From assembly GCA_965197425.1 (NCBI GenBank), contig CBDANC010000015.1:397013-461012 (forward strand): DNA of 64,000 nt. The letters are read 5' to 3'. Both the position numbers and the translations under genes were made by a program. This stretch comes from Bdellovibrionales bacterium (GTDB lineage Bacteria > Bdellovibrionota > Bdellovibrionia > Bdellovibrionales > JAUICD01). This document shows positions 2 through 21,649 of this stretch, piece by piece (within the stretch, counting starts at the first letter, position 1; each line of letters starts with the position of its first letter). The notes below the pieces were generated by a model that saw only the letters and a list, made by a program, of their open reading frames with translations, ran no database searches and was not told the origin of the DNA.

Positions 2-787
2 CCATACATTGACCTAACCAACCTAAATGAAACTGATACAAAAGATGATATTAAAAAACTTGTAAATAAGGCTTTGTCTTTAAAACATAAAAATTTACCA
101 TCTGTAGCAAGCATTTGTATCTATCCTTCCATGCTAAAGTTTGCAAAAGAAAGACTGGATGGAAACTCCACTTGTAGTGAAAACTCCGCTCGTAGTGGAT
201 ACTCCACTGGTAGAAGTAGCAAAATCAATGTGGAAACTCCACTGGTAATTGCTACAGTTACGGGTGGTTTTCCCTCCGGAAAACTTAACTTAGAATCAAA
301 GTTGATAGAAACTAAAGAAGCAATCCAAATGGGGGCAGATGAAATTGACTTTACTATTTGTAGAGACTACTGTAAGCCTTCCGAAGCCCAAAAATTATTT
401 GATGAAATTTACAATATAAAAAAACTAGTGGGAAGAAGACCTCTAAAGGTAATTTTGGAGACAGAAGAGCTACATAGCTATGACAAAATAAAATTGGCAT
501 CCAACATAGCACTCTATGCAGGTGCTGACTTTATCAAAACCTCAACAGGAAAAATTAAAGGTCCACTTGATCACAAAATAGCCTCTTTTCTAGTTATTAT
601 GGATAGCATCCTAGATTTCTACAACCAAACAAAAAAGCAAGTTGGTATAAAGGTATCCGGAGGTATTAGTGGGGTGGATACAGCCATGCTCTTTTTTAAT
701 ATGGTACAAACACAAATGGGGGAAAAATGGGTAAGCCCCAAATTTTTTAGAATAGGCTCAAGTAAACTTATGGATAATATTGTTTAG
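2..787 (+). CDS. deoC: Deoxyribose-phosphate aldolase, 5' end outside the window
   Basis: The frame is open from position 2 (PYIDLTNL...). Motifs GADEID, LKVILET, ADFIKTSTGK, GIKVSGGI and FRIGSS are typical of DERA. Carries an ~30-aa repeat-derived insertion at 158-246. Confidence 0.93.
   Translation, partial: PYIDLTNLNETDTKDDIKKLVNKALSLKHKNLPSVASICIYPSMLKFAKERLDGNSTCSENSARSGYSTGRSSKINVETPLVIATVTGGFPSGKLNLESKLIETKEAIQMGADEIDFTICRDYCKPSEAQKLFDEIYNIKKLVGRRPLKVILETEELHSYDKIKLASNIALYAGADFIKTSTGKIKGPLDHKIASFLVIMDSILDFYNQTKKQVGIKVSGGISGVDTAMLFFNMVQTQMGEKWVSPKFFRIGSSKLMDNIV
158..246 (-). repeat. Four copies (3 tandem + 1) of the 18-bp mini-palindrome, in reverse orientation, inside deoC
   Basis: Units 158-175, 176-193, 194-211 and 229-246 are reverse complements of the ACCAGTGGAGTTTCCACT unit seen in nusB, secF and tyrS. 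Confidence 0.85.
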
Positions 788-907
788 ATCGGGCAATCGG
801 GCAATCGGGCAATCAGTCAATCAGGCAATCGGGCAATCGGGCAATCGGGCAATCAGTCAATCAGTCAATCAGGCAATCGGGCAATCGGGCAATCGGGCAA
901 TCAGGCA
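788..907 (+). repeat. 15 x 8-bp tandem repeat (ATCGGGCA / ATCAGTCA / ATCAGGCA), 5' flank of four-helix-bundle element copy 1
   Basis: Counted directly; starts immediately after the deoC stop codon. Confidence 0.97.
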
Positions 908-916
908 AACTGGCTA

Positions 917-993
917 TGGTCTCCTTTTTTTAAAAATATTTCCTCCCAGATAAAAACCATGGAGCAAATATTTTTTTCAAAAAAAGGAGACTA
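917..993 (+). promoter_or_regulatory. Long leader hairpin occluding the Shine-Dalgarno sequence of the four-helix-bundle gene
   Basis: GTCTCCTTTTTTT (919-931) pairs with AAAAAAAGGAGAC (979-991); inner stem AAAAATATTTCCTCC / GGAGCAAATATTTTT. Confidence 0.7.
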
Positions 994-1001
994 TATACAT
1001 T

Positions 1002-1295
1002 ATGAAAAATTTTAAAACATATCAATTAGCTGTTCAGTTCTACAATAATTCTAAAGGGATATACCTAAAAGAACCACTCAAAAATCAATTCCAAAGAGCT
1101 ATATTAAGCATAGTATTAAATTTGGTTGAAGGTAGTGCAAAGTTCAGTAACAAAGAAAGACGAAAATACTACAGAACCAGTTTAGGCTCACTTAGAGAAA
1201 CACAAGCTATACTAGATCTCATAGATCATAAAAAGCTAACAGAAGAAGCAAGTAGGTTAGGAGGGTATCTTTACAAACTTTGCAAGAATACATAA
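1002..1295 (+). CDS. Four helix bundle protein (23S rRNA-IVP / bAvd-like family)
   Basis: 97 aa; YQLA...L..QF.RA..SI.LN..EGS...F...SLGS.RE....L pattern of the TIGR02436/PF05635-type family; AGGAG RBS. Confidence 0.88.
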   Translation: MKNFKTYQLAVQFYNNSKGIYLKEPLKNQFQRAILSIVLNLVEGSAKFSNKERRKYYRTSLGSLRETQAILDLIDHKKLTEEASRLGGYLYKLCKNT

Positions 1296-1356
1296 TCGAG
1301 GAACCAGGCAACGGATCACAGATTCCAGATAACGGATCCCCGATCTAGTCGGGCAA

Positions 1357-1821: not shown

Positions 1822-2035
1822 GCTCTCTCTCCCTTTTAAACACTACGGCTAACCTAAAACAAGGCCTGCCAAAGGGCCATAAAACATTATTCTCCTACCA
1901 AAAAGCAAGGTAACACTACCATAATGCCATTAACATATCAATCAACTGACAGTGAATAATTTACATTTGTTGGTCATTTATTAGGTATATAAAAATTACT
2001 ATATATTTATTCTTTGCATTTTGTTACGAAGCACC

Positions 2036-3676
2036 ATGGTTTTGAAATTATCTGGTGTTTTGGTTTTTATTTTTGTTGGTGTGGCCAGTTATATTTATGG
2101 CCAGAGTGGTTCTGATGTAGTGGGTAATTGGTATAGTGTGTTGCCCCCTGTATTTGCGGTTACTGTAGCTCTTATTACCAACAATGTTTTTATAAGTTTA
2201 ATTGGTGCGGTTCTTCTTGGTGCTTTTTTAATCAAGATGCCTTCTGGTGAATTTCTTACGGGTGTACTTGATTCACTCTACAAGTTTTTTAGTATTCCTA
2301 TTCTGGAGTTAACAGATACTTTTAATCTTCAGGTCATTGGTTTTGTTGTATGTGTTTTGGCTTTGATCTCTGTTGTTATAGTTTCTGGTGGTTTAAAGGC
2401 TGTGATTCGGTACATATCGGTTTATGCGAATGGCAGAAAGTCTACTAATTTTGTAACCTTTGTTTTGGGAATTTTGATGTTCATAGATGATTATGCCAAT
2501 ACTATGTTGGTTGGCTCTTCTATGAGAGGAGTCTATGATGCAAATAAAATTTCGAGGGAAAAGCTGGCATTCATAGTTGATTCAACAGCAGCTCCCATTG
2601 CTGGGCTTGTTTTTATAAGTACTTGGGTTGGGTATGAAGTTGGTCTTTTGGGTCAGGTAGCGGGTGATTTAACCCTAGGGGTAGGGGGTTTTTCTATGTT
2701 TTTTGATGCAGTAATTTTTAGATTTTACTGCATATTTACATTGGTGTTTGTGTTGGTGAACATATTTTTGGATAAAGATTTTGGACCAATGGCCTCTGCT
2801 GAGGCCAGTACCACACAGGTTCCTGTTAGTAAAGAAATTCAATCAGACAAAAATGCTGTGCCTAGTGTTATGGTTGCGCTAGTGCCAATGGTGTTTTTGG
2901 TTTTGTATGTATTTATGGGTCTGTGGATAGATGGTGGAGGAGGTAAGGTTATAAGTGAAAAGTCCGTTTTATCTCTTCTTAGTTTTTCTGATTGGAAAGA
3001 TGTAGTATCCGCTTCAGAAAATAATATATTGATACTTTTTCATGCCTCTCTATACGGGCTTATTTTGGCTATGATTTTGGGAATATCTATCTCAAAGGTT
3101 CATGTAAGAAATATCTTTAAGGGCGCACTACGTGGTGTTAAAAAGAGTATGCTTCCTATTTCTATCCTAGTGCTGGCATGGTCTATTAAAACAGTTTGTA
3201 AAGAACTTGAGACAGGACCGTTTTTGGTATCAATCTTGGCAGACTCTATATCTCCAGTTTGGTTTCCTATAATACTTTTTGTTATCGCCGGATTAACAGC
3301 ATTTACTACCGGTACTTCTTGGGGAACCATGGCTATTCTCATTCCATTTGCAATTCCATTGGCAAGTGCATTGGACGGAGGAGCTTACGGGCTGGTTACC
3401 ATACTTTCCGTGGCTACTATTTTAGACGGTGCAATTTTTGGGGATCACTGCTCTCCGATTTCAGACACAACAATTATGAGTTCGATATCAAGTGGATGTG
3501 ATCATATGTCACATGTAAAAACCCAAGCACCTTACTCAGTGGTTATAGCATCTGTAGCTTTGATTGGTTATTACTTATCTAGTATGGTCCATTTTGTAAT
3601 AACATTTGCTTTAGGCATTGCTTTAATATTTCTGTTACATAAATATCTATGTAAGCTCTGGAACAAAAATAGTTGA
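2036..3676 (+). CDS. Na+/H+ antiporter NhaC family transporter
   Basis: Multi-TM protein; motifs FIDDYAN, SREKLAFIVDSTAAP, TGTSWGTMAIL and GAIFGDHCSPISDTTIMSS. Confidence 0.9.
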   Translation: MVLKLSGVLVFIFVGVASYIYGQSGSDVVGNWYSVLPPVFAVTVALITNNVFISLIGAVLLGAFLIKMPSGEFLTGVLDSLYKFFSIPILELTDTFNLQVIGFVVCVLALISVVIVSGGLKAVIRYISVYANGRKSTNFVTFVLGILMFIDDYANTMLVGSSMRGVYDANKISREKLAFIVDSTAAPIAGLVFISTWVGYEVGLLGQVAGDLTLGVGGFSMFFDAVIFRFYCIFTLVFVLVNIFLDKDFGPMASAEASTTQVPVSKEIQSDKNAVPSVMVALVPMVFLVLYVFMGLWIDGGGGKVISEKSVLSLLSFSDWKDVVSASENNILILFHASLYGLILAMILGISISKVHVRNIFKGALRGVKKSMLPISILVLAWSIKTVCKELETGPFLVSILADSISPVWFPIILFVIAGLTAFTTGTSWGTMAILIPFAIPLASALDGGAYGLVTILSVATILDGAIFGDHCSPISDTTIMSSISSGCDHMSHVKTQAPYSVVIASVALIGYYLSSMVHFVITFALGIALIFLLHKYLCKLWNKNS

Positions 3677-4165
3677 TCGGACAACCAAGTAGCAGTCAAT
3701 CGGGTGTCTGATTAGATCTGTGATCTGGCACTCAGGGATCTGATATCTGCATCCGGGATCTGGCATCAAGCATCCGTAATATTCTTAATTTTTCCAAAAA
3801 AATTTCCTCCCATCAAATGATGGTAAGGAGGAAATTTTCTATGAAAAAATTAAAAACATACCAACTAGCTAAAAAGTTTTATCAAAACTCAAAAAAACTC
3901 TGCTTAAAAGAACCACTAAAAAATCAGTTCCAAAGAGCTACCTTAAGCATTGTACTAAATATCGCAGAGGGGAGTGCCAAACCAACAATAAAAGAAAGAA
4001 AAAGATTCTATGTAATAAGCCTAGGATCGCTTAGAGAAGTACAAGCCATACTAGATCTGATAGAACACAAAAACCTAATGGAAGAAGCAAATATACTCGG
4101 AGGATTTTTATACCAATTATGGAAAAATACATGATCCCAGGATGCCAGATCCCAGATCTGGTATT
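3677..4165 (+). mobile_element. Putative four-helix-bundle mini-element, copy 2
   Basis: Perfect 13-bp inverted repeat GGGATCTGGCATC (3755-3767) / GATGCCAGATCCC (4141-4153); GATCTG-rich flanks; SD-occluding hairpin at 3799-3838. Confidence 0.6.
3841..4134 (+). CDS. Four helix bundle protein (paralog 2)
   Basis: ATG at 3841 after AGGAGG gives 97 aa, colinear with 1002..1295. Confidence 0.88.
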   Translation: MKKLKTYQLAKKFYQNSKKLCLKEPLKNQFQRATLSIVLNIAEGSAKPTIKERKRFYVISLGSLREVQAILDLIEHKNLMEEANILGGFLYQLWKNT

Positions 4166-5155
4166 CTAGATAGCTTTTTTTAGTTTTTCTACTATGGTGT
4201 TTTTTAGTTTGTGGAAATCATCTTTCACCACCGCACCCGAAGAGTTAAAATGACCCCCTCCTCCAAGCTCTCTTGCAATGTTGAAGACATCAACATTACC
4301 CCTACTTCTTAGAGATACTTTATATTGGCTTGGAGCATCTTCTCTGAATAGAACAACGGCTTTCAAAACATCAACTTTCATAATGGAATCTATAATATCA
4401 CCAGTATCATCAATGCTGATATTATGCTCCAGCATAGACTTGCTGCTTATATGTATAATACCAATTTTGTTGTCATGTAGGTATTCTAAGTTACTAATCG
4501 TCTTAGCTAAGAAATGCATTTTGCTAATACTGTAGTTGCCAAATATTTCTCTATGTACTTGCTCAGGATTTTTTTCATATTCTAAAATTTCAACTGCAAT
4601 TTTGTGTGATTGAGAAGAGCCTCTTATATATTTAAACACCTGAGTGTCGAAGCAAACCGCAGTATAAACTGCTCTAGCTATGTCTTTATTCATTGGTATG
4701 CCCATTTTTTTTATTAAGTGATAAACTACCTCACCAGATGAAGCTGCATCTTTGTTTATTAAAAAGGACACGTTTTCGTAATGTTTGTCTTTTGAAATAT
4801 GATGATCAACAAATATTATATGTTTACATTTTTCTTCAAATTCAGAAAATAAATCTCCAACATGGTCTGGATCGTTGGTATCAAATATTAAAGCCAAGTC
4901 TGTAGGCTCTAAGTTTTTGTGTTTTTGCTTTTTGTTTTCAATTTTATCTGAATGTTTTAAAAAACCATATCTAGGAGGAGTTGGATCCAGATTCAATATC
5001 CTTACCTTTTTCCCCAGGTGTTTAAGTGCATAGTACATGGCCATTTCTGATCCCAGACCATCCCCATCAGGTTCTCTATGCGTACTCAAAACAACACTAT
5101 TTGCCTTAGTTATAATGTCAGAAACTGAGTCAAGTTCTAGCTTTAAACTACCCAT
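4166..5155 (-). CDS. nrnA: Bifunctional oligoribonuclease/PAP phosphatase (DHH/DHHA1)
   Basis: H..PDGDG.GS, DHH, SLRS and GGGH motifs. Confidence 0.88.
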   Translation of the reverse strand: MGSLKLELDSVSDIITKANSVVLSTHREPDGDGLGSEMAMYYALKHLGKKVRILNLDPTPPRYGFLKHSDKIENKKQKHKNLEPTDLALIFDTNDPDHVGDLFSEFEEKCKHIIFVDHHISKDKHYENVSFLINKDAASSGEVVYHLIKKMGIPMNKDIARAVYTAVCFDTQVFKYIRGSSQSHKIAVEILEYEKNPEQVHREIFGNYSISKMHFLAKTISNLEYLHDNKIGIIHISSKSMLEHNISIDDTGDIIDSIMKVDVLKAVVLFREDAPSQYKVSLRSRGNVDVFNIARELGGGGHFNSSGAVVKDDFHKLKNTIVEKLKKAI

Positions 5156-5212
5156 TACCGTACAACTCCTATAAGCTTCTCCCGTCCTTATCGGATAAAA
5201 TTCTAAAAAACA

Positions 5213-6565
5213 CTAATATATATTAAAGTATTTCATTGCTATGGTGGCTATACCAAGGAATGATAGAAATCCAAAACAATCGGTTATTGTAGTCACTAAA
5301 ACACCACTTCCTGAAGCTGGATCCCATTTTTGTTTTTTTAAAAACAAAGGGATAATAGCACCCATTACAGATGCTACAAATGAGTTTAAAATCATCGATA
5401 TGCAGATAATTACACTTACTAACAAATGGCTTTTCCACAAATAGACAATCACTCCGGCACAAATACCGGTTATCAGTCCTAATGAAATGCCAACTTTTAT
5501 TTCTTTTAAGATGGCTTTTGTATGGCTTATAAAATCAAAGTCACCTGTTGCCAGACCTCTGGTTACCACAGTAAGTGTTTGAATGCCCATGTTTCCACCT
5601 GTGCCAGAGACTATGTTGTTAAGTGTGGCTAGTATGATTAGTTTGCTCATGGTTTCTTCAAAAAAAGAAATCACCAGGCTGATTAGCCCAGCGAAGATCA
5701 GGTTGAGCATCATCCATGGTAATCTATTTTTTATACTCTCTATTGGTCTGGTATATACCTTATCATCTTCTTGAAGCCCTGCTTGTTTATATATATTTTT
5801 TGTAGCTCTATCTTCAATAATATCTATTATGTCATCTACAGCAATAACGCCCTTCAGTTGTCCCTCATTGTTTAAGACAGGTATGGCTAACAGATCACTT
5901 GTACCTACTAGCTCTGCAACCTCCAAAGTTTTGGTATCGGTAGATGCACTTATCACATCTGTTTTCATAATGTGTTTTATTAAAGTATCTTCACTAGCTG
6001 TTACCAGGTTTCTTAAAGAAATAACTCCTTTAAATTTATTGTCATTTGAAACACAGAATACATAGTATATAGGTTTTTCTTTTACATAGCTTCTGACCTG
6101 AGAAATAGTTTCTTTTACCGTTATGTCTTCGTTAACTGAGAAAGCATTAAGCTGCATGTCTCTTCCTGCTGTTTTTTCTTCGTAGCTAAGTATTTGCCTG
6201 AGCCTGGTTCTTGTTGCTATTGGAAGTTCATTTAAAATTTTGTTCTGATCATCCTTGTTAAGTGAGCTTATAAAATGTGATGCATGTTCCTCTGAACTGA
6301 CACTACAGATTTTTACAAATGTGTGTAAATCTTTGCTAAAAAAATCTCTTATAGTAGGTTCTGGTAATTCCCAAAAAACCTTACCCACCTTACCTATTGA
6401 GATTAAACCTCTGGTCAGTGTGTCTATTTCTGATTTATTCAGAGCAAAATATAACTTACTAAGCTCCCTAGGCTCGGTTTTAGATAATATTCTCCTCAAA
6501 GGTTTCTGACCTTTGGAGTTTAAGAGCCTTTTAATAATAGACATATTGGTATTACTGTTATACAT
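5213..6565 (-). CDS. mgtE: Magnesium transporter MgtE
   Basis: N-terminal domain, CBS pair, RLPW, GGN.G.Q and DPA.GSG..VTT.TD motifs. Confidence 0.93.
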   Translation of the reverse strand: MYNSNTNMSIIKRLLNSKGQKPLRRILSKTEPRELSKLYFALNKSEIDTLTRGLISIGKVGKVFWELPEPTIRDFFSKDLHTFVKICSVSSEEHASHFISSLNKDDQNKILNELPIATRTRLRQILSYEEKTAGRDMQLNAFSVNEDITVKETISQVRSYVKEKPIYYVFCVSNDNKFKGVISLRNLVTASEDTLIKHIMKTDVISASTDTKTLEVAELVGTSDLLAIPVLNNEGQLKGVIAVDDIIDIIEDRATKNIYKQAGLQEDDKVYTRPIESIKNRLPWMMLNLIFAGLISLVISFFEETMSKLIILATLNNIVSGTGGNMGIQTLTVVTRGLATGDFDFISHTKAILKEIKVGISLGLITGICAGVIVYLWKSHLLVSVIICISMILNSFVASVMGAIIPLFLKKQKWDPASGSGVLVTTITDCFGFLSFLGIATIAMKYFNIY

Positions 6566-6673
6566 AGCCCCTTTACTAGCATGCCAGATTGTGTTTTACA
6601 AACTGAGGCAATTCGAGGGATAGGTAATTCTTCACTAATCTAAAATCTGGCCTATCAAATTTAAGAGGGTTTT

Positions 6674-7153
6674 ATGGCAAATGATCAACTTCCTATAACA
6701 GAACGTGGTAAAAGGAAGCTAGAAGCCGAGCTGAAAACGTTGATACAAGTTGAAAGATCTAAGGTTGTCAAAGCAATTGAAGAGGCAAGAGAGCAAGGTG
6801 ATCTAAGTGAAAATGTAGACTACGATGCTGCAAAAGAAAGACAGGGGTGGATAGAGGCTAGAATTTCAGAAATACAGGGCAGACTAGCAGGGGCAGAAGT
6901 TATAGATCCATCAAAACTTAAATCAGATAAAATTATATTTGGTGCCAAAGTAACCCTGTTAGACTGCGAAGAAGACAAAAAAGTCGTGTACCAAATCACA
7001 GGACCAGAAGAATCTGATGTAAAAGAGGGCAGGATTTCGATACTATCCCCACTGGCTAGGGTACTAATAGGAAAAAAAATTTCAGCTGTCGTGGAACTAT
7101 CTACCGCCAATTTTACCAAAGAATATGAAGTATTAGACATAAAATTTGAGTAA
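6674..7153 (+). CDS. greA: Transcription elongation factor GreA
   Basis: AREQGDLSEN..YDAAKE.Q and IS..SPLAR.LIGK motifs. Confidence 0.96.
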   Translation: MANDQLPITERGKRKLEAELKTLIQVERSKVVKAIEEAREQGDLSENVDYDAAKERQGWIEARISEIQGRLAGAEVIDPSKLKSDKIIFGAKVTLLDCEEDKKVVYQITGPEESDVKEGRISILSPLARVLIGKKISAVVELSTANFTKEYEVLDIKFE

Positions 7154-7392
7154 AAACTACCAAATTTATAGTGTAAAAAATTCAATTTTTATAGCTATTT
7201 ACTTAGGTTTTGGTATCTGTCGTCCTTAGTTGGTGCCATTTCTATGGCGGTTAGTGTAGTGTCTTTATCAGGTAAGATATGTTATTATGGTCTTTCCAGA
7301 TATAGAGCTGTACAGAGTTTAGGCCAGGTAGCCAACATAGGTGGCTGGTGTGTGTAACCAGACTTCATAGCCTGCTATCTTGGGAGGTGAGT

Positions 7393-7737
7393 GTGAGGAA
7401 GGCAATTAAGTTCATTGGTTTTGAACCGGATAGTGAGCTTGCGGATTACGCTCTTTGTGTTGTAAAGGACTTGAAGATGATGTCTCCTTCTAGGTCTTTT
7501 GTGATGCTCAATTTGAGAATGGTGTCTTGTGGTACCTATGAAGGTTCTGTTGATATAAAATCATTCCAGAAGCATTTTTTTGGTAGTCTTTCTGCCGGAA
7601 GTCCCAATGAGGTCTTGGAGTTGCTTTTCAACAAGTTGAAAAAGCAGATAGATGAATGGAAGGAGATTAGGTTCGATTCTGAGGAACCTCCCAGCGTAAA
7701 AGAACTAGACAGCAGTTTGTACGGCAGTAACTTCTAG
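7393..7737 (+). CDS. HPF/RaiA-like small protein (tentative)
   Basis: GGAGG RBS then GTG at 7393. The beta-alpha-beta-beta-beta-alpha pattern ending KLKKQIDEWK..RF resembles HPF-like proteins. Confidence 0.45.
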   Translation: MRKAIKFIGFEPDSELADYALCVVKDLKMMSPSRSFVMLNLRMVSCGTYEGSVDIKSFQKHFFGSLSAGSPNEVLELLFNKLKKQIDEWKEIRFDSEEPPSVKELDSSLYGSNF

Positions 7738-7786
7738 TTTAGTTACATCTTCTATTTCATATCATAGTTTTAAGAAAGTATTGTAC

Positions 7787-9424: not shown

Positions 9425-9436
9425 CTTTAGTTACTT

Positions 9437-9894: not shown

Positions 9895-9911
9895 AAAAAC
9901 CTCTCAAAGGG

Positions 9912-9975
9912 TCTATAGCACATGTGTAAGGTGCAGGTCAAATGTATTGACTTATATTGTGTTCCTTGGTAGCTT
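9912..9975. promoter_or_regulatory. Divergent sigma70-like promoters for rpsR and rpmB
   Basis: + strand TTGACT-N17-TAGCTT (9947-9975); - strand TTGACC-N18-TATAGA with an extended TG (9912-9941). Confidence 0.45.
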
Positions 9976-10002
9976 CCCCGCTTGTTCCTTTGGAGATTTA
10001 AT

Positions 10003-13664: not shown

Positions 13665-13697
13665 GGGTACAGAGGCTTATCACATATGATGTGATAA

Positions 13698-14042: not shown

Positions 14043-14134
14043 AGAACCCCCTTTTTTGCCCGTTTGGCAGGCAAGACACAGCTCCCATTCTAACTCAAAA
14101 AAATATAATTTACATGATGAATATGATGATAATT

Positions 14135-15928
14135 TTAAGCTAGGAGGTTATATGTGATTAACATGAGGACATAAGCTAGTACCGTGTATGCTATAAACAA
14201 TAGTATTGGTATTTTGTAGCTTCCTAACTCTTTTCTAATTATGGCCAGGGTTGATACACATTGCAGAGCTATGGCATAGAACACTAATAGGCTTAGTCCA
14301 GATGCCAGGCTTAAATCTGCTAGATGCTCCGATAGCCCTACCAAGTTATTGTTTATATTTTCTAGGCCGTAGAGTGTTGCCAGTGTTCCTACAAACACTT
14401 CTCTTGCCAAAAAAGATGATATTATTGCTACTCCAAATTTCCAGTCTAAACCTACTGGTGCAAATATTGGGCTAATTAGATGACTAATTTTTGCAAGCCA
14501 CGATGAAGATAAGCTTCCAGCTCCGTTTGGAAAATATCCTAGTAACCACACCACAACAGTAACTGAAAATATTATAAATCCAGCTTTGAGCACAAATAGC
14601 CAAGATTGTTGTAGGCCGGTTAATGTTATTGATTTTAGGTTTGGCATTCTGTAGGGAGGAAGCTCAATAATAAATGGCATATCTGAGTATTTTTTTGCAA
14701 ATGTGTTAGCTAAAAAATACGATATTAACAACGCTGCCACAATTCCTAGAGAATATAACCCGGTAAAGAAGGTACCCTGAAGCCCCACAACTCCAAAGAA
14801 ACTTATATTTGGTATTAACACTGAAATTAGCAGTGCATATACTGGCAGCCTTGCAGAACATGCCATTAACGGAATCGTAAGCATCGTAAGCAACCTTCTT
14901 CTTGGAGAAGCTATTGTTCTAGCTGCAAAGATTGCAGGTATAGCACATGCATGTGCCGATAGAAATGGTATAAAACTTCTGCCAGATAACCCAAAAAAAC
15001 TAAACACTCTATGGCAGAATATACTAGCACGAGCTAAGTACCCCGAATCTTCTAAAAATGATATTATAAAAGTTAGTATAAATATTTGCGGCACAAATAC
15101 CAAAAATGATCCACAACCACCAAACAATGCATCTTTAACAAAGTCTTTTAATATTTGGTTTGAAATAAGGTTGGCCGTAGCTGTTCCAGTTTGTGAAATT
15201 AGGGTTTCAATTGCATTCATCAGAGGTGCTGACCAAGTAAAGATAGCTTGAAACAAAATTAACATTGAAGATACAAAGATTACTGTACCCCAAAGTCCCG
15301 ATAGAAAAATTTTATCTAGCTTATTACCTCTTTTTATTAGAAGTCCTGGATTAGACAAAAATGTTCTAGCTACTTTTCTGCTTAAGTTATAAATATCATC
15401 TTTTGATTCTGGTACTTGTTCTTGTAGTATACCTACGGACTCATCTTTTATTGCTTGTTTTAATTTGTCTAAATTTTCTCCGGTCTTTGCAGAAATGGGT
15501 ACTGTATGTGTTTTTAGATCCTTTTCTAATTCTTCAATGGTAATTTTGACATCATTTTTTTTGATTTCATCTATCATGTTAAGGGCAAAAATAAATCTTT
15601 TATTATGTTTTCTGGCTATCTCTTTTGCCTGTAACCCCACCACTAAACTTCTCTCCAACCTGGTGGCATCTAGTACACACACCACAACAGACTTTTGGGT
15701 TTTTACTCCGTCTATAAATTTGTTTATGGCTACTTCTTCATCACTAGTTATAGGGTCTAAGGAATAGACACCTGGGTAATCTATATACGTAATGTTGTTC
15801 GAACATCCTGATTTTACTTCTACCGTAACCCCTGGAAAGTTGGATACTTTTTGATTTGCCCCAGCTAGTTTATTAAAAAGAAGGCTTTTTCCCGTATTAG
15901 GTTTTCCAATAAAAAGAGCAGTTGTCAC
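14135..15928 (-). CDS. feoB: Ferrous iron transporter B
   Basis: G.PN.GKS.LFN.L.G, NFPGVTVE, D.PG.YSL, LEDSGYLAR, CSARLPVY and ELP.Y..P. Confidence 0.95.
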   Translation of the reverse strand: MTTALFIGKPNTGKSLLFNKLAGANQKVSNFPGVTVEVKSGCSNNITYIDYPGVYSLDPITSDEEVAINKFIDGVKTQKSVVVCVLDATRLERSLVVGLQAKEIARKHNKRFIFALNMIDEIKKNDVKITIEELEKDLKTHTVPISAKTGENLDKLKQAIKDESVGILQEQVPESKDDIYNLSRKVARTFLSNPGLLIKRGNKLDKIFLSGLWGTVIFVSSMLILFQAIFTWSAPLMNAIETLISQTGTATANLISNQILKDFVKDALFGGCGSFLVFVPQIFILTFIISFLEDSGYLARASIFCHRVFSFFGLSGRSFIPFLSAHACAIPAIFAARTIASPRRRLLTMLTIPLMACSARLPVYALLISVLIPNISFFGVVGLQGTFFTGLYSLGIVAALLISYFLANTFAKKYSDMPFIIELPPYRMPNLKSITLTGLQQSWLFVLKAGFIIFSVTVVVWLLGYFPNGAGSLSSSWLAKISHLISPIFAPVGLDWKFGVAIISSFLAREVFVGTLATLYGLENINNNLVGLSEHLADLSLASGLSLLVFYAIALQCVSTLAIIRKELGSYKIPILLFIAYTVLAYVLMLITYNLLA

Positions 15929-16001
15929 AGCTTATCCAAAAATATTTTTGTTGTAATAGAAAACTTAGATGCTTAACAGTGGATATAGTCGTTTTTGTTT
16001 A

Positions 16002-16256
16002 TTACCTCTGAATAAGTACTTTTTGAGCAAGGTCTTTTGGTAGAGAAATTTGAAAACCTCCAACATTAAACACTTTAGACTTCCCAAAAGGTATAGTATG
16101 TTCACAAATTATCTCTGATTGTAAATCAAGGCCCATGCCCCTAAGCCTATCAACATGGCCATCTGCAAGACCAGAAAAACCATCAACATATCCAGTTTCT
16201 TTTTTCTTTAAATCCCAAAGGGATGTTTTTTTATCAACTGAAACTTCCGACATCAT
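16002..16256 (-). CDS. feoA: Ferrous iron transport protein A
   Basis: SH3-like RL..MG...P.G pattern, directly upstream of feoB. Confidence 0.8.
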   Translation of the reverse strand: MMSEVSVDKKTSLWDLKKKETGYVDGFSGLADGHVDRLRGMGLDLQSEIICEHTIPFGKSKVFNVGGFQISLPKDLAQKVLIQR

Positions 16257-16439
16257 CGTACCTTAAACATCATCACATCTCATCATTACACTTCCAAACA
16301 GTATCGTTGTTAAGCCAGTATCGTATCTAACATCAGCTATATGATCATCAAATATTCGATAATTACTACCAGCAAAACCAGAAGAGACTAGAGTAAAATT
16401 ACTTGAAATACAATTTTATTCTGGCTAAAACTTTATGCT

Positions 16440-16709
16440 ATGAAGCGCAAAGGTAGTATAAAGGCCAGGTGCAGTGTTCCATTGCTAGATCTTCACGGAG
16501 TAACTTCGGATGAGGTTTTTGGTTTATTGGATAAATTTTTGTTAGATGCTATGGATGAAGTTGTGGTAAAGGTGATGCCTGGAAAGGGTACCGGTGTTGT
16601 AAAAAATAAAGTGGTGGAATACTTGGAAGGTGCTGGTTACAAATGGAGCTATGAGCTTAAAGGGGATGGCAACTATAACACTGGCGTTTTATTGGTTAGA
16701 ATGGCATAG
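16440..16709 (+). CDS. Smr/MutS2 domain protein
   Basis: LDLHG, GKGTG and G.L.V motifs. Confidence 0.88.
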   Translation: MKRKGSIKARCSVPLLDLHGVTSDEVFGLLDKFLLDAMDEVVVKVMPGKGTGVVKNKVVEYLEGAGYKWSYELKGDGNYNTGVLLVRMA

Positions 16710-16717
16710 GATCTTTT

Positions 16718-17431
16718 ATGGCAAAGAAATTAACTAAGGAAGATTTAAGCACCAAGGGAATATTGCACAATATTGCTCTAGGGTCTTTGGCATTTTATCA
16801 AAATCACAAAAAACTGGTTATATTTTTGCTAGGATTTTTGGTTCTTGGTGGCATTTTTTTTAAGGTAATGTATGACAAAAAAAAGGGGGCCCTTCTGGAA
16901 GGTTTTAAAGCCCTATATGTACCAATGAGTGAACAAGAAAAAATAACTAAGTTAGAACTTGAAAAGGTAGAAGTAAATAGCCAAGAGATTAATATAGAAG
17001 AAATAAAGTCTCAGGTGAAACTTGATTATGATAAGCTTCTTAGAGAGGAGCATCCAGATCAGGTTATGATTTTTGCTGCCTTGAATTTGGCAGATATTCA
17101 CAGGAAAAATGGTGATATAGATGCCGCCATTTCTGCATTTTCAAATGTAAATTTAGATGGTAAATATTTTTTAAGTGGTCTAGGGGCTATGATGTTGGCA
17201 TCCTTGTATGAAGAGTCTGCTAATTGTGATAGAGCTTTGGAGTTATGGGATGAAGTTATAAAAAAGTTTTCTTTTTTTAGAACTGAAGCTCTGTTGAAAA
17301 AAGCTCTTTGTTTAGAAGATAGTGATATGGAGCAAGCTTTGGATATCTACACTAGGTTGTCGGTCGATTCGCCAGATACTTCTGAAGGTGTTTTAGCAAA
17401 AAAGCTACTTATGATTAAGCGTGGGAAGTAA
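16718..17431 (+). CDS. YfgM-like membrane-anchored TPR protein
   Basis: One N-terminal TM segment and TPR-like helices; translationally coupled to bamB. Confidence 0.7.
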   Translation: MAKKLTKEDLSTKGILHNIALGSLAFYQNHKKLVIFLLGFLVLGGIFFKVMYDKKKGALLEGFKALYVPMSEQEKITKLELEKVEVNSQEINIEEIKSQVKLDYDKLLREEHPDQVMIFAALNLADIHRKNGDIDAAISAFSNVNLDGKYFLSGLGAMMLASLYEESANCDRALELWDEVIKKFSFFRTEALLKKALCLEDSDMEQALDIYTRLSVDSPDTSEGVLAKKLLMIKRGK

Positions 17432-18516
17432 TGAATATATTAAAAATTTTGTTATTAGGCTTACTTTTCGTCTCCTGTATTTCTGCTGGTGAAAAACCTA
17501 TGGATGGTATGACAAGAAAGTGGATTAGAAGTACTATAAAACCCCCTTACTTAGGCCCCAAGTTATCTCATTTGATGAGTCCTGTTTTTTTGAATGAACT
17601 TGTAATTCAAGGTAATGGTCACGGCTCTTTGGTAGCTATAGACGCTGATAGTGGTAGGATTTCTTGGAAATTTAATGCTAAGCATGGGGTACATGGTGCC
17701 ACTGTCTTGGGGGATAAGTTATTTTTTGGTACAGAAGCAGGTTGGGTTGTTTGCTTGGATAATAAGGGCAACCAACTTTGGGATTTAAAATTAGAAGCTG
17801 GTGTCTATTCAAAGCCTACAATACATGAAAACTTCCTTTATTTATTAACCGGCGATAATGCTGTCTATTCAATAAATCTAGATACTAAAAACATAACTTG
17901 GACTTACAGCCGAAACAGCAATGTTTCTATGAGTGTGTTAGGAAGTAGTTCCCCTATACCCTACAAAGATATTCTGTTGGTAGGCCTTAGTGATGGGTAT
18001 CTGGTGACATTAAATCAAAAATCCGGTTTGTTAGTCTGGGAAAAAAAACTTAACACTTCAGATAAGTTTAAAGATATAGATGGGATGGCTTTGGACGGCG
18101 ATATGTTGTATGTATCAAATTTTGATGCAGATTTACTTGGTCTTAATGCTAAAGATGGCAGCTTGGTATGGAAGAGCGAGAATTCGGGAGGAGGTAGTGA
18201 TCCTACAGTAGCGGAAGATATTGTATTGATCTCATCATCTAACGGCGGCGTAGAGGCACTTAAAAAGGCTACGGGCGAAAAGCTCTGGACATTTAAACTA
18301 AAATCAGGATTTGCAACAAAACCCCTGGTATCAAGTAACACTGTATATTTTGGCCAGAACAATGGTCCTGTTGTTGGTTTAGATATTAGAGACGGCAAAC
18401 AACTGTTTTCTTATGCTGTTTCAGGGACATTGGCAACACCTAGTATATCCGGCAATACTCTTTACCTTATCTCTAATGCAGGTAATTTGAACGCCATAAA
18501 CACCAACACTGATTGA
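17431..18516 (+). CDS. bamB: BamB-like PQQ-repeat beta-propeller lipoprotein
   Basis: Lipobox FVSC; repeated A.D..SG...W blades; yfgM-bamB synteny. Confidence 0.72.
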   Translation: MNILKILLLGLLFVSCISAGEKPMDGMTRKWIRSTIKPPYLGPKLSHLMSPVFLNELVIQGNGHGSLVAIDADSGRISWKFNAKHGVHGATVLGDKLFFGTEAGWVVCLDNKGNQLWDLKLEAGVYSKPTIHENFLYLLTGDNAVYSINLDTKNITWTYSRNSNVSMSVLGSSSPIPYKDILLVGLSDGYLVTLNQKSGLLVWEKKLNTSDKFKDIDGMALDGDMLYVSNFDADLLGLNAKDGSLVWKSENSGGGSDPTVAEDIVLISSSNGGVEALKKATGEKLWTFKLKSGFATKPLVSSNTVYFGQNNGPVVGLDIRDGKQLFSYAVSGTLATPSISGNTLYLISNAGNLNAINTNTD

Positions 18517-18585
18517 TCCTGGTCCAACTAAAGCTAGGGAATTTTCATACTCCGCCAATTCACCTTGTTTCTAGCCTCATTAACC

Positions 18586-18686
18586 TCACCTTATCTGGTA
18601 TATTTTTAATTTTTTCATAAGATATGTTGTCTCTCTTTTTTTAAAAAAAGGAGACAATTGCCAGATCCCGGACTGCCCGATCTCTA
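18586..18686 (-). pseudogene. Truncated four-helix-bundle element (5' flank, leader hairpin, first 10 codons)
   Basis: The minus strand reads GATCGGGCAGTCCGGGATCTGGC-AATTGTCTCCTTTTTTT-AAAAAAAGAGAGACAA..ATG and then MKKLKIYQIR* (copy 2 begins MKKLKTYQLA). Confidence 0.75.
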
Positions 18687-18769
18687 TGTAGTAGGTACTT
18701 CTCCTTACGATAATGGATTGGCTGTGAGGGAGACGCAAAAACATGATATTATTTCTACCTCTGATTTGT

Positions 18770-18980
18770 CGAAAAAACGGAGGGTTTACGGGGGACCTTC
18801 CGTAACGTAATTCGTCCAGCAAAAATGGAATAAGTCCCATTGTTTGCTGAACGGGAATCAGTGTTGAGCTTTTATGACCGGGATTGGCATCTTGTTCCAG
18901 AGCTGGGCATCCACTCGGCTAAAAAATGACTTGGCTACACTTGGACTTCGTCTTGTTCGTTCCGCCAATCCATTTTATTA
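18770..18980 (+). repeat. Intergenic REP-like mosaic (module E + module A variant)
   Basis: AACGTAATTCG-hairpin-TCAGTGTT, then GGGATTGGCATC..TCCAGAGCTGGGCA.CCACTCGG...GGAAGACCTT. Confidence 0.8.
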
Positions 18981-19151
18981 ACCTCATTGGAAGACCTTTG
19001 TGTATCATTGTCGTACAAGGTGACTCTTTAGAATTTGCTTGAAGATGTTACCTGTTTTTTCCGAAAAGTCATAGTCAGGCTTTTATTTATGTTGGTTAGG
19101 TACAAACTGTATAGCCATAGTTTGTAGTTTTGTAGGTATACAAATAGGTTT

Positions 19152-21107
19152 ATGGGATCAAGTGGAATAAATATAGTGGTGGTAGATCATCAAACTTTTG
19201 GTGAAACACTAGTAAAACATCTAAAGGAGGCAGGGTTTAATGCTGTTTTAACCCGTAAACCTAGTGATGCAATAAGAGAATTTGGTGTTAGATCAGTCCA
19301 TGCATTTATAATTGAGTGTGTGTTACCTGGCTATTCTGGTATAGACCTTGCCAAGAGCCTAAAAGAAACTGGTGCTTCTTCCATACCATTCTACTTCATG
19401 TCTGGATTATTCAAAAGTCAGACCTTCATAAAGAAAACCCTTTCAGATACTGGAGGAGAGGGCTTTTTTGAAAAACCACTAAACTACGAACATATTATTA
19501 CAACTTTAAAAGATAGGTTTAAAATACAACCTGAAGCCAAAGAAAATAATTCAATGGTTAGTTTAATGATGGATGACAATCTAACTGATAGATCTTGTCT
19601 TGAGGTATTGCAAAATACAGATAAAGTTTACGGTTATGATATACCTGCATTGATATCTATTATCTCTCGTACAAATATTATGGGAGTGGCCAGATTTAGT
19701 TCAAAAAGTGATATGGCTAAGGTATATATATCAAAAGGCAATGTTATATCTGTATTGTCAAACGATACAAACTCATACTGGGGTTCTTTGTTACTTGAAA
19801 AAAACCTGATTAACCCAGAAGACCTTCAATTTCACTTATCTAAAAATGATAAAGGTAAAATAGGTACAAGACTTATTGAAGCTAATTTAATTAGCCCACA
19901 CACGGTAGATTTTATTTGTCTTGAACAGGCTCGTATTAGAATTGGTAGAATGATAAAAGATGTTCGTTATTCATTTAACTTTACAAATTTTAACTTATCT
20001 CAAACAGATAGCATGCAACGATGCAATTCTTCTTATATGTCAAATAGATTTATATCTGAATGGGTATACATAAAGACCCCTGTTGAGTTTTTGAGGCAGG
20101 TTTACATTCCGTTTTTGGAATACAAAGTTACAAAATCTTCTAATTATAAAAATAGAAACAACATTTTATCCGTACCATATGTCAGTCACGATACAGAACT
20201 TTTAGATTCTTTATCTGAAAAAGAATATTCTCTTTCAGAATTATTATCTTTCAAAAAGAATCAAGAAATCTACAGACTAGTGCACTTCTTGATTTTAACT
20301 GATGTGATTACTTTTAAACGAAATAACAACCATGAAAATTATCAATCTAGAATTGAAGTTTTAAATAAATTTAAGAAGGATATTGAGAAACAAAACTACT
20401 TTCAAATATTAGGTGTTAATGAGGGTAAAGAATTTGATGAATACTCTCTGAAAAGCTCTTATATTAGTCTTACTAAATCATTTCACCCTGACAAATTAAT
20501 AGACGCTCCTTCAGATTTGAGGGCCATTTCTAATGAAATATTTAACATTATTTCGGAGGCATATAACACATTACTTGATCCTGATAAAAGAGCAAAATAT
20601 GAGTCGGGTATAGAAAGTATTAAAGCTGATATAAAGCTAAGTTTAGATAATTTATTATCAGATGCAAAAGCTCATTTGAAAAACTATCAGGAAACTAAGG
20701 CCTATGACTTATTACAAAAAGCTGTGAAATTACAAAAGCCATCTAGTGAGCTTAGCCTTTATTTATTATGGGCAAGGATAACTAAAAATAAAGATGAGGA
20801 AATTGCACAAAATGATTTAATGGATATTTGGGATACACTAAACCATATTCCTGTGGAAGATAGAAACACCGCTTTGTATTATTTTGTTAAGGGGTTATTA
20901 CAGAAAAAAATTGGAGACTACGATCTATCTGAGCTTAATTTTAAAAAGTCAATTTTATTTGACGGCAAATTTATTATTGCAAGAAGTGAGTTGAAAAAGA
21001 CAGAGAAACTGAAAAAGTCTAAATCAATCTCTATGAGACTGGGTAGTGCAAAAAAGCAACTCAAAGATATGTTTTTCAACAAAGATAAACAAAAGAAAGC
21101 CAGTTAG
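19152..21107 (+). CDS. Receiver-like / DUF4388-like / DnaJ / TPR multidomain protein
   Basis: N-terminal REC fold (LPGYSG.DLA, EKP); central G.LL...LI...G.RL segment; J-domain NYFQILGV...FHPDK...AYNTL.D..KR..Y; C-terminal TPRs. Confidence 0.8.
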   Translation: MGSSGINIVVVDHQTFGETLVKHLKEAGFNAVLTRKPSDAIREFGVRSVHAFIIECVLPGYSGIDLAKSLKETGASSIPFYFMSGLFKSQTFIKKTLSDTGGEGFFEKPLNYEHIITTLKDRFKIQPEAKENNSMVSLMMDDNLTDRSCLEVLQNTDKVYGYDIPALISIISRTNIMGVARFSSKSDMAKVYISKGNVISVLSNDTNSYWGSLLLEKNLINPEDLQFHLSKNDKGKIGTRLIEANLISPHTVDFICLEQARIRIGRMIKDVRYSFNFTNFNLSQTDSMQRCNSSYMSNRFISEWVYIKTPVEFLRQVYIPFLEYKVTKSSNYKNRNNILSVPYVSHDTELLDSLSEKEYSLSELLSFKKNQEIYRLVHFLILTDVITFKRNNNHENYQSRIEVLNKFKKDIEKQNYFQILGVNEGKEFDEYSLKSSYISLTKSFHPDKLIDAPSDLRAISNEIFNIISEAYNTLLDPDKRAKYESGIESIKADIKLSLDNLLSDAKAHLKNYQETKAYDLLQKAVKLQKPSSELSLYLLWARITKNKDEEIAQNDLMDIWDTLNHIPVEDRNTALYYFVKGLLQKKIGDYDLSELNFKKSILFDGKFIIARSELKKTEKLKKSKSISMRLGSAKKQLKDMFFNKDKQKKAS

Positions 21108-21250
21108 TTGATCAATTAGTCGGGCAATCAGGCAGTCGGGCAATCAGGCAAACAGGCACACCGGCACACCGGCAATCCGGGATCTGGTGAATTGATTAAA
21201 TTTTCTAAAAAAATTTCCTCCCATCAAAGATGGTAAGGAGGAAATTTTTT

Positions 21251-21544
21251 ATGAGAAAATTTAGAACTTATCAGTTAGCGGTTCAATTCTATAATAATTC
21301 TAAGAATTTATACTTAAAAGAACCACTAAAGAATCAATTTCAAAGAGCTACCCTAAGCATTGTACTCAATTTAGCAGAGGGAAGTGCCAAACCTACAACA
21401 AAAGATAGAAGAAAGTTCTACAGAACCAGTTTGGGCTCGCTTAGAGAAACACAAGCTATACTGGATCTCATAGATCATAAAAAGCTAATAAATGAAGCCA
21501 ATATACTAGGAGGATATCTTTACAAACTGTGTAAGAATACATAA
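21251..21544 (+). CDS. Four helix bundle protein (paralog 3)
   Basis: ATG at 21251 after AGGAGG gives 97 aa, highly similar to copies 1 and 2. Confidence 0.88.
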   Translation: MRKFRTYQLAVQFYNNSKNLYLKEPLKNQFQRATLSIVLNLAEGSAKPTTKDRRKFYRTSLGSLRETQAILDLIDHKKLINEANILGGYLYKLCKNT

Positions 21545-21561
21545 ATCGGGCAGTCGGGCAA

Positions 21562-21603
21562 AAGTTAGGAGCATACCTTTACAAACTATATAGGAATACC
21601 TGA
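21562..21603 (+). pseudogene. Orphan 3'-end fragment of another four-helix-bundle gene
   Basis: Translates as KLGAYLYKLYRNT*, against ILGGYLYKLCKNT* in the intact gene. Confidence 0.75.
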
Positions 21604-21649
21604 ATCTGGTGGCTGATGCAGATCCCAGAGTGCCGGATTGCCTGATAAA

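Follow-up and report, generated by a model that had tools for sequence, protein, structure and literature searches.

The window, a 64,000-nucleotide stretch of a Bdellovibrionales contig, carries three open reading frames of 97 amino acids (1002–1295, 3841–4134 and 21251–21544), all of which exceed the curated HMM cut-offs of both PF05635 and TIGR02436, confirming the assignment made in the initial annotation. The copies had been called near-identical; however, their DNA identities are 73, 77 and 81%, with dS of 1.0–1.3 and protein identities of 71–84%. Each gene lies in a cassette composed, in order, of a repeat arm, a palindromic leader, an ORF for a basic four-helix-bundle protein and a variable arm. 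As first proposed, the units begin at the stops of co-oriented genes, and 3/3 gaps are convergent: the arm of copy 1 begins within the deoC stop codon (785–787), that of copy 2 within the stop codon of an nhaC-like gene (3674–3676), and that of copy 3 immediately 3′ of the stop of a REC-DnaJ gene (21105–21107). Searches with PADLOC, PHROGs and Rfam (window positions 1–30000) were without a match. The features are as follows.

785–914, plus strand: copy 1 5′ arm, from within the deoC stop codon onwards; tandem array of 15 units of 8 bp, 788–908
915–995, plus strand: copy 1 hairpin leader of type A, a long palindrome with the SD on the right arm and its complement on the left; z −8.2
1002–1295, plus strand: copy 1 ORF, 97 aa, PF05635/TIGR02436, pI 9.9
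1296–1356, unstranded: copy 1 3′ flank; 9-bp inverted match at 1339–1347, then a direct unit; adjoins the convergent stop 1357–1359
3674–3786, plus strand: copy 2 5′ arm of GATCTGG-type units, starting at the nhaC-like stop; true left junction between 3667 and 3674
3787–3840, plus strand: copy 2 hairpin leader of type B, whose left edge repeats the first codons in antisense
3841–4134, plus strand: copy 2 ORF, 97 aa, PF05635/TIGR02436
4135–4160, minus strand: inverted 3′ arm of copy 2; match of 13 bp at 4141–4153; self-folding z −4.1; right junction 4160/4161
18592–18683, minus strand: remnant with an arm, a collapsed type-A leader and ~8 ORF codons, interrupted by another repeat family
21108–21198, plus strand: copy 3 5′ arm, adjoining the REC-DnaJ stop; units of 8 and 16 bp
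21199–21250, plus strand: copy 3 hairpin leader of type B; two other genome copies have an identical one
21251–21544, plus strand: copy 3 ORF, 97 aa; 94.5% to the copy at C15:391954, the closest pair in the genome
21545–21561, plus strand: copy 3 direct 3′ arm, common to the likely donor-type copy at C15:391954
21562–21603, plus strand: end of an older four-helix-bundle gene, final 13 codons and stop; continuous with the upstream gene part in strain runs X3 and X4
21604–21649, minus strand: copy 3 inverted arm, in sense orientation right behind the stop of a convergent 201-aa gene
29634–29772, unstranded: remnant without a gene, in a convergent gap; from the host stop 29772–29770 an arm and the beginning of leader A, next a short opposite-facing arm, then an arm and the beginning of leader B

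The two remnants, at 18592–18683 and 29634–29772, had been overlooked in the initial annotation.

The quoted arm sequences of copy 1, TAGATCGGG at 785 paired with CCCGATCTA at 1339, were both located, as was the perfect 13-bp inverted pair of copy 2 (3755/4141), whereas the inverted match of copy 3 exists but is gapped, with a longest exact inverted repeat of 10 bp. The description of the arms as GATC-rich fits copy 2 (5 + 3 sites) but not copy 1, whose 130-bp 5′ arm is an 8-bp ATCGGGCA-type array holding one GATC. Similarly, the 3′ arms had been taken for inverted copies of the 5′ arms; inverted repeats are indeed present, but copies 1 and 3 also have direct repeats past the stop, and part of the supposed 3′ arm of copy 3 (21562–21603) belongs to a different four-helix-bundle gene. 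The leader hairpins do hide the SD, with z = −8.2, −4.2 and −4.9 for copies 1, 2 and 3, and 0/200 shuffles were equally stable. Type-A leaders (n = 7) are 95% paired, and the antisense first codons at the left edge of the leader co-vary with the gene (25 leaders, 0/20000 permutations); by this covariation, leader pairing is kept up by compensatory change.

Protein fold and selection

The predicted structure (pLDDT 96) consists of four helices, and its top Foldseek matches are 2GSC and 2RLD. These correspond to the PF05635/TIGR02436 proteins Xcc0516 and BT_0352, which have the fold in common with the window proteins (TM 0.75–0.88) and also the R-x3-S-x3-N-x2-E core; the window proteins form a shorter, 97-aa subfamily. 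From the motif GxxRxxxSxxxNxxE given in the available text of PMC3936711, residues R32, S36, N40 and E43 are at least 90% conserved across 45 rows, and the leading G is absent. The same text places genes of this family in cas operons. The Avd structure 4DWL was not among the Foldseek matches listed, and the likeness of the cassette protein to Avd is drawn from the homologous fold reported for the PF05635 family and Avd in the accessible part of PMC10053308, not from Foldseek. Avd is described, in the portion of PMC6182149 available, as basic and pentameric, binding its own RNA at a non-coding segment.

Over 17 copies the ORF has a dN/dS of 0.12, rising to 0.47 for private changes, and neighbouring ORF sites are more compatible than permuted ones (0/500 permutations). 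Judged from these substitution patterns, cassette ORFs are under purifying selection and are mosaic; the purifying selection would also be compatible with a benefit to the host.

Copies in the genome and orientation of their arms

A tblastn search of this genome (G000) gave 22 loci, reduced to 21 after E16 (C15:296589) was excluded as spurious, and family matches number 19 in G000, 14 in G002 and 18 in G021. Convergent gaps host 10/21 loci against a 15% background (p = 4e-4), and besides the ends of mRNA genes, loci also lie behind two tRNAs. Short direct repeats precede the ORF in the 5′ flanks of 19/21 loci, and across the 21 the cassette ends are ragged and variable, with no fixed terminal inverted repeats. 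Decayed copies also occur among the loci.

Arm clusters number 36 in G000, 13 of them solo and none inside genes; G001 has none. We judged arm placement by nearest stops and gap types rather than by the 31/36 arms that lie behind a co-oriented gene, a count inflated by a motif set taken from 5′ arms, with which any arm in a convergent gap scores. In convergent gaps, the solo or inverted arm was nearer the stop of the gene with the same sense in 9/9 cases (one by a single base), and co-directional gaps showed a weak sense bias (cassettes 7/9, p = 0.09; solo or inverted arms 5/8). Placement at gene ends may reflect a survival filter.

Of the 21 loci, 12 have a direct 3′ arm, 6 an inverted one and 3 neither. 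The inverted repeats of the window copies (13, 10 and 9 bp) are the longest of the 21 loci, two others tying at 9 bp. Cognate arms paired no better than swapped ones in two tests (p 0.88–0.97), the longest inverted repeat averaging 7.8 bp for cognate and 8.3 bp for swapped arms (p = 0.88), and therefore an excision stem is not the rule; windows of 120/140 nt, which missed the 9-bp repeat of copy 1, and of 170 nt gave the same answer. Direct-repeat matches were higher in cognate than in swapped arms (p = 0.03–0.05). The proposal that inverted arms generally form an IVS-like stem enclosing the ORF was thus not sustained, as inverted-dominant 3′ flanks make up only 6/21 and the pairing test is null. 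Copies lacking inverted arms and hairpins, which the annotation had named as evidence against its reading, were found in part: beyond those six loci the flanks are not inverted-dominant, and several copies have lost most of the leader.

These results bear on the reading of the cassette as an mRNA intervening sequence, in which the arms close a stem, RNase III excises the unit and mobility resides in the RNA set free. The genome does contain the RNase III gene rnc, each of the three window copies forms an arm-arm helix when folded on its own, the family is found in IVSs that RNase III excises and that have heptamer repeats ahead of the ORF (PMC4990558, text available in part), and in distant relatives the inverted lexicon predominates in the 3′ flanks (43 vs 18 of 81). 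We nevertheless consider this reading unlikely: besides the equal pairing of swapped arms, the longest uninterrupted helix is 8–13 bp at every locus, compared to a 28-bp stem in Coxiella; in 7/21 units, among them copy 2, whose stem is lost once more flank is included in the fold, no arm-arm pair exceeds a probability of 0.5; 9/10 of the 3′ arms in G002 are direct; and a unit in a 3′ UTR would be harmless even unexcised. As inverted arms are optional in the lineage, an excision stem can at most be part of the explanation.

Filled and empty alleles, and the search for an enzyme

The same-genus genome G001 has 0 cassette loci, compared to 21 in G000, and 13/21 G000 sites are short empty gaps there. 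The family is absent from both G001 and G003; G001 holds 48 kb of its own short repeats, so the loss of cassettes is not general streamlining. Sister-genus genomes carry the family at other sites, and only 1 of 36 gene pieces in G002/G004 lies beside an orthologue of a G000 flanking gene, in a different arrangement. A distant metagenome locus, reached through an NrnA neighbour (single match, 26% identity), was not used.

The search for empty sites in the 3′ gaps, suggested in the initial annotation, succeeded at copy 2, where two of four runs, from ~95%-identical strains, join across the site as an exact empty allele. Copy 1, which is not syntenic with G001 and falls outside the stretch compared with the strain runs, yielded no empty site, and copy 3 sits at an older gene end. 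The copy 2 empty allele has 22 other letters in place of the cassette, and entry replaced 14–22 bp of host DNA, with the host stop codon restored in frame. No target duplication is present at this one exact junction. At copy 3, the older gene end was present in 2/4 strain runs, from two studies, and copy 3 looks to have overwritten a resident copy, homologously on the left and non-homologously on the right, a direction set by parsimony from low-depth contigs. Strain run X4 also shows weak joints near 18592–18721, with flanking sides of 21–28 letters. The proposal of a unit that disperses among host gene 3′ ends is thus upheld by the 21 loci compared to none in G001, the empty gaps, the strain empty allele, the different sites occupied in sister-genus genomes and the convergent-gap excess. 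On allele comparison, with its one exact junction, the cassette is mobile, appearing at new gene ends and turning over within lineages and between strains.

We searched G000 for five Pfam families of candidate mobilisers. The reverse transcriptase profile PF00078 had no match in G000 (completeness 99.4%), G002 or G021, with 3 RT matches in G004; the Y1 (HUH) transposase PF01797, IS110 and rve profiles had none in G000. DDE_Tnp_1 matched one gene in G000 and some in G002, G004 and G021, with none in G001; the terminal repeats of the G000 element match no cassette locus. Mobilisation in trans by a transposase is accordingly improbable, since the single exact junction lacks a duplication and none of the enzymes searched for has ends that match. 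Five families were searched and 221 G000 proteins have no G001 match, so an unusual enzyme may remain; likewise, other small repeats have spread in G000 and G001 without the family gene, and a shared mobiliser may therefore exist.

Movement through reverse transcription, with the protein recruiting an RT as Avd does and read-through cDNA being pasted at gene ends whenever an RT is present, seems quite unlikely. The ragged ends, truncations, location behind stops and two tRNAs, the family likeness to Avd (PMC10053308, in its available part) and the RT matches in G004 agree with it, whereas PF00078 is missing from three genomes with 19, 14 and 18 family matches, no adenine-specific mutation bias was seen in private changes at codon positions 1–2 (A 0.33, G 0.31, C 0.26, T 0.08 per site) or in G002, and a scan for viral relatives confirmed 0/31 pattern matches. 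Highly doubtful is a host-serving regulator that acts on the arm repeats in 3′ UTRs and multiplies by duplication and gene conversion: purifying selection, the numerous intact ORFs and the possible mobile repeat-binding protein proposed for other heptamer repeats by MacGregor 2015 (PMC4679880, accessible text) suit it, but the family is missing from G001 and G003, absence at strain level, decayed copies and a start-burying hairpin are observed, and a role in trans would need one gene only. A MITE-like passenger moved in trans by a DDE or HUH transposase is largely refuted and very improbable, for although DDE_Tnp_1 genes occur in G000, G002, G004 and G021 and are lacking in G001, the terminal repeats of the G000 element fit no locus, the cassette has neither fixed ends nor a duplication, Y1, IS110 and rve are unmatched in G000, and a passenger ORF would be expected to drift.

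A proposed recombination-copied cassette and its relation to known systems

The reading we favour, with middling confidence, is that of a selfish, promoter-less cassette of ~0.45–0.6 kb copied by recombination into gene 3′ ends. Copies would move as single-stranded nucleic acid caught by host recombination or repair, one end being anchored by arm, leader or ORF homology and the other attached by illegitimate joining. Such one-ended capture would leave solo arms, collapsed leaders and mosaic ORFs as by-products. The arms would constitute a polarised module set in sense behind stop codons, so that facing genes would give an inverted pair and tandem entry a direct pair. Transcription would come by read-through from the host gene, and the hairpin over the SD and first codons would keep translation low. 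By analogy with Avd, the protein may act as a nucleic-acid chaperone with a ring shape, binding the strand of its own cassette and aiding the copying of that strand; if so, a chaperone favouring its own strand would explain purifying selection on dispersed copies.

In distant Bdellovibrionota, the family occurs as head-to-head gene pairs around one palindrome. Such twin pairs comprise 62/82 testable family genes in other relatives, and 23/30 of their spacers have an SD on both strands. The twin-gene cassette has the same subfamily, leader design and arm lexicon as that of G000; unlike it, all G000 copies and all G002/G004 copies examined are single, and these form one clade (SH-aLRT 99, in a quick tree from few columns). 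The leader hairpin here looks like a relic of the twin-pair palindrome, and the best reading is that the single-gene cassette derives from the twin-gene cassette common in Bdellovibrionota. More tentatively, there may be a class of mobile element whose sole gene is an Avd-like chaperone, with no nuclease, recombinase or polymerase, that picks out its own strand and delivers it to host recombination; its ancestor would be a two-gene unit around one palindrome, expressed in either orientation, and would have given rise to rRNA IVS genes, orphan heptamer repeats and DGR Avd alike.

Structures have been solved for the large family PF05635, to which no function is assigned, and gene-end heptamer-type repeats in bacteria have no established means of spread. 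At this locus close strains carry either the filled or the empty allele, one copy appears to have overwritten another and the leader shows compensatory pairing, and binding, translation and mobility are therefore directly testable. No published description of the cassette was found in a search of the main texts of open-access literature, and the accounts of PF05635/TIGR02436 proteins covered, including the available text of PMC3936711, describe no such anatomy or dispersal.

MITEs and REP/REPIN elements are, like the cassette, small, dispersed, intergenic and without their own transposase; unlike them, the cassette carries a selected ORF and has no fixed ends, duplication or RAYT/Y1 gene. The heptamer repeats of Xanthomonas and Nostoc (PMC4692102) and Beggiatoaceae (PMC4679880) likewise consist, in the accessible texts, of short units in tandem that lie on the sense strand no more than 50 bp from a stop; some form convergent pairs, and their means of spread is unexplained. 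Their available main texts mention no helix-bundle gene, which supplementary gene tables might list; the units here, by contrast, are 7–8 bp and are physically arms of a gene cassette. The Coxiella S23p IVS encodes the same protein family behind variable-number short direct repeats, its translation apparently suppressed, and is considered selfish, as is the cassette (PMC4990558, in part). Unlike 23S IVSs, the cassettes lie at mRNA and tRNA 3′ ends, lack a long terminal stem, occupy ~20 sites per genome and carry an ORF under purifying selection; the 23S gene here has no insert (2984 bp for 2925 model positions), and 0/21 loci lie inside it. With the DGR accessory protein Avd, the cassette protein shares a reported homologous fold and a strongly basic character (PMC6182149 and PMC10053308, as far as available); unlike a DGR, the cassette's genome has neither RT nor adenine bias, and the cassette is not a DGR.

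Window copies and their sites in relatives

In the window, we found all three ORFs reported by the initial annotation, together with their PF05635/TIGR02436 family assignment, their leader hairpins and the repeats it quoted. Each cassette (5′ repeat arm, palindromic leader hairpin of type A or B, 97-aa ORF and variable 3′ arm) occupies, as described, a convergent gap between facing stop codons:

1002–1295, copy 1 ORF; neighbour deoC, scoring above the TIGR00126 cut-off
3841–4134, copy 2 ORF; neighbour an NhaC-family antiporter, assigned by Pfam alone
21251–21544, copy 3 ORF; neighbour a REC-DnaJ protein

The copies are less alike than the "near-identical" genes first described, with a DNA identity of only 73–81% and dS of 1.0–1.3. 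Two cassette remnants also lie in the window, both flanked by other modular intergenic repeat families (18880–19000 and 29440–29580), whose commonest 14-mer occurs 53 times and favours neither strand in co-directional gaps (18 versus 14). An 18-bp palindromic repeat is seen at 163–245 and 57393–57448, one 14-mer of it being present 32 times genome-wide; one run falls near the 5′ end of the deoC frame, before the start of both the HMM match and the match to the same-genus genome G001. A 1200-aa ORF at 40535–44137 contains cysteine-rich long tandem repeats of 129–264 bp.

By tblastn, the 1.6-Mb source assembly (G000) holds 21 loci, two being 3′-end fragments, after removal of one spurious locus from a raw count of 22. 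A protein-family search gave 19 matches in G000, none in G001, and 14 and 19 in the sister-genus genomes G002 and G004, the family being matched in 16 of 31 genomes overall. G001 is one contig, 93% complete, with a median protein identity to G000 of 68%, and tblastn matched no cassette across 1,600,000 of its 1,600,901 bases. At 13 of the 21 sites both flanking genes are still adjacent in G001, with a shorter gap (7 bp versus 489 bp in G000 at copy 2, 32 bp versus 542 bp at copy 3); at one other site the flanking genes are adjacent but G000 has additional genes, content differs at three sites, and synteny is absent at four, copy 1 among them. G001 is not simply repeat-free, because its own short repeats total 48 kb, versus 50 kb in G000. 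The dispersal proposed initially, to be judged by copy counts and empty sites in relatives, is borne out by these numbers, and we are confident that this unit is a mobile cassette, both dispersed and polymorphic. Cassettes at C13:27964–28172 and C14:310808–311227 in G000 begin a few bases past tRNA-Arg and tRNA-Trp; in G001, a matching tRNA-Trp-like gene is followed by unrelated DNA.

One of 36 gene pieces in G002 and G004 has as its neighbour the orthologue of a gene that flanks a G000 locus, in a different arrangement, and one further piece has a weak 28% paralogue alongside, several sides having no match to compare. In a tree, the copies of G000, G002 and G004 form one clade, largely sorted by genome. 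This grouping and the different sites in G002 and G004 mean that the cassette was inherited from the family ancestor, its sites turning over.

We compared contigs from four sequencing runs, including X3, X4 and X5 of close strains, with window positions 2000–21990. In X3 (one 9.4-kb contig, ~95–96% identical) and X5, copy 2 has an empty allele joining 3666 to 4161 with 22 other letters between, in which the antiporter ends after an unchanged number of codons and the gap is 17 bp. Because this allele makes that join with the same codon number, the entry of copy 2 replaced 14–22 bp and supplied a new in-frame stop; the target duplication that the initial annotation had proposed looking for is absent from this exact junction in both runs. 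At copy 3, X3 and X4 (from two studies) join 21472 to 21562 with 30 other letters between, and their allele is a single continuous gene whose last 13 codons persist behind copy 3. Copy 3 and the C15:391954 copy share 94.5% identity, the leader and ~17 bases past the stop. These joins are explained most simply if an older resident copy was overwritten by one of the C15:391954 type, joined at homologous sequence on its left side and at non-homologous sequence on its right; this order of events is assigned by parsimony from low-depth contigs.

Arm orientation and the leader hairpin

It had been proposed that inverted arms fold into an IVS-like stem enclosing the ORF, which could be excised or mobilised in trans. 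The inverted matches of the three window copies are the longest in the genome, and for each the enclosing helix folds in isolation, which together with the presence of RNase III in G000 favours excision; when more flank is included, the 3′ arm of copy 2 pairs locally instead. Genome-wide, however, the inverted arrangement is not general. Scored with a lexicon drawn from 5′ arms, 19 of 21 G000 5′ flanks read forward, and the 3′ flanks comprise 12 forward, 6 inverted and 3 neither; the corresponding 3′ flanks are forward in 9 of 10 cases in G002, and 3 forward, 5 inverted and 7 neither in G004. Cognate arms are no more complementary than swapped ones, either in inverted match (7.8 versus 8.3 bp, p = 0.88) or in duplex energy (p = 0.96), and their direct match is slightly longer (9.6 versus 8.5 bp, p = 0.03). 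We therefore consider IVS-like excision unlikely. The G000 23S gene has no large insert.

A motif scan of G000 detected 36 clusters of arm repeats, of which 13 have no gene nearby; none falls inside a G000 gene, and G001 has none. Cassettes favour convergent gaps (10/21 versus 15%, p = 4e-4) and show a weak preference for the sense orientation in co-directional gaps (7/9, p = 0.09). Wherever a convergent gap contains a solo or inverted arm (nine of nine), the arm is closer to the stop codon of the gene that has its sense than to that of the other gene. We infer that each arm is a module with polarity, and that many inverted pairs are the product of two entries that face each other. An inverted layout may nevertheless be the ancestral state in part of the family, because the inverted lexicon predominates in the 3′ flanks of distant relatives (43 versus 18 of 81; 165 hits versus 41 in shuffles), which counts against a purely incidental origin.

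At 66 loci of other relatives, a set with four regions chosen for a paired look and a few duplicate loci, 62 of 82 testable genes stand in 31 head-to-head pairs around a single palindrome, the twin partners being mostly 46–73% identical (range 30–93%). An SD-like motif is present on both strands in 23 of 30 twin spacers, whose ends are similar to G000 leaders A and B. The outer flanks of 23 pairs carry direct repeats (12.7 versus 7.2 bp, p = 0.0014) and, less markedly, inverted repeats (8.0 versus 6.9 bp), both comparisons being confounded by shared genome. G000 and the fetched G002 and G004 regions contain no twin pairs. At its left edge, leader B repeats the first codons in antisense; an antisense ATG is present there in 12/12 leaders in G002, 3/6 in G004 and 0/7 in G000. 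This edge co-varies with the codons of its own gene (8.6 versus 7.55 of 9 bases; 0/20,000 permutations overall, p 0.01–0.05 in each genome). The hairpin is thus likely a relic of a bidirectional leader, and its pairing over the SD and start is actively maintained, by RNA selection or by DNA copying between the hairpin arms.

Two twin units in tandem at L168:206–1800, and a partial and a full unit with one arm in common at L116:3598–4152 (G002), fit unequal recombination between direct arms. Contigs break off in or close to the leader palindrome, 0–220 bases ahead of the gene, at L159, L160, L166, L170, L173, L177, L179, L180, L182, L186, L187, L190, L200, L206–L208, L210, L215 and L217; because so many stop there, twin units are probably under-counted in assemblies. 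The twin unit L192 comes from a record that carries the label candidate division WWE3, and sits amid Bdellovibrionota relatives, reflecting transfer or mis-binning.

The protein and its possible mode of movement

The 97-aa protein is predicted to be a four-helix bundle (pLDDT 96, pI about 10), with 2GSC and 2RLD as the closest solved structures and its nearest named relatives in Bdellovibrionales genomes. No viral relative was found, and PADLOC and PHROG gave no match. Over 17 full copies, with inserts taken out of four, dN/dS is 0.12; private changes give a crude estimate of 0.47, which suggests that selection is relaxed after landing. Different stretches of the gene have different nearest neighbours, and clonal descent is rejected by a PHI-like test.

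Five G000 cassettes carry an in-frame 66-bp insert at the same ORF site (C6:2517–2582, C12:103503–103568, C13:84742–84807, C13:208861–208926 and C15:353037–353102). This insert is one of at least 52 copies of a distinct repeat family that G001 lacks; its members are found nearly always after an AAAAC(C) run and usually within another repeat. A 62-bp insert of another family (~15 matches) disrupts one ORF at C13:84830–84891, and at L093–L126 a ~130-bp repeat proper to G002 and G004 interrupts cassette ORFs at a common position close to the GSLR motif and is also inserted in their flanks.

For the enzymology of movement, which we infer, we favour, at about an even chance, a route in which host recombination or repair would copy the cassette in at gene 3′ ends, its protein chaperoning its own strand. 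Borrowed reverse transcription appears somewhat less probable than excision. Family searches of G000 matched no RVT_1 (nor Y1_Tnp, IS110 or rve), and there is no adenine mutation bias. That the cassette is a host regulator seems more doubtful again. Passage on a transposase is very improbable, given the absence of duplication at copy 2 and the ends of the single G000 DDE_Tnp_1 gene, which match no cassette locus. That transposase (C11:5853–7499), which has 13-bp terminal inverted repeats and shares 88% identity with a G004 protein, lies in what we take to be a repeated ankyrin-like region, and was possibly transferred recently.

Comparison with known systems

TIGRFAM calls the rRNA location of the family unconserved, and MITEs and REPINs are used here in their general sense. 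In portions of the cited papers, an IVS has a 28-bp stem, RNase III and heptamers upstream of S23p (PMC4990558), heptamers are polarised and convergent (PMC4692102), PF05635 resembles Avd (PMC10053308), the Avd pentamer binds DGR RNA (PMC6182149), and PF05635-family genes occur in cas loci, with a family motif (PMC3936711), and in CPR rRNA inserts (10.1101/2024.02.27.582315); those portions, and that of PMC4679880, do not describe the cassette. It belongs to the PF05635/TIGR02436 protein family and has parts in common with IVS, but by their membership tests falls outside IVS, MITE, REPIN and DGR. The cassette is a real mobile unit, to which the window locus adds an exact strain-level empty site, the apparent overwriting of one copy, arms that are not obligatorily inverted and a twin palindrome linked to the single leader.
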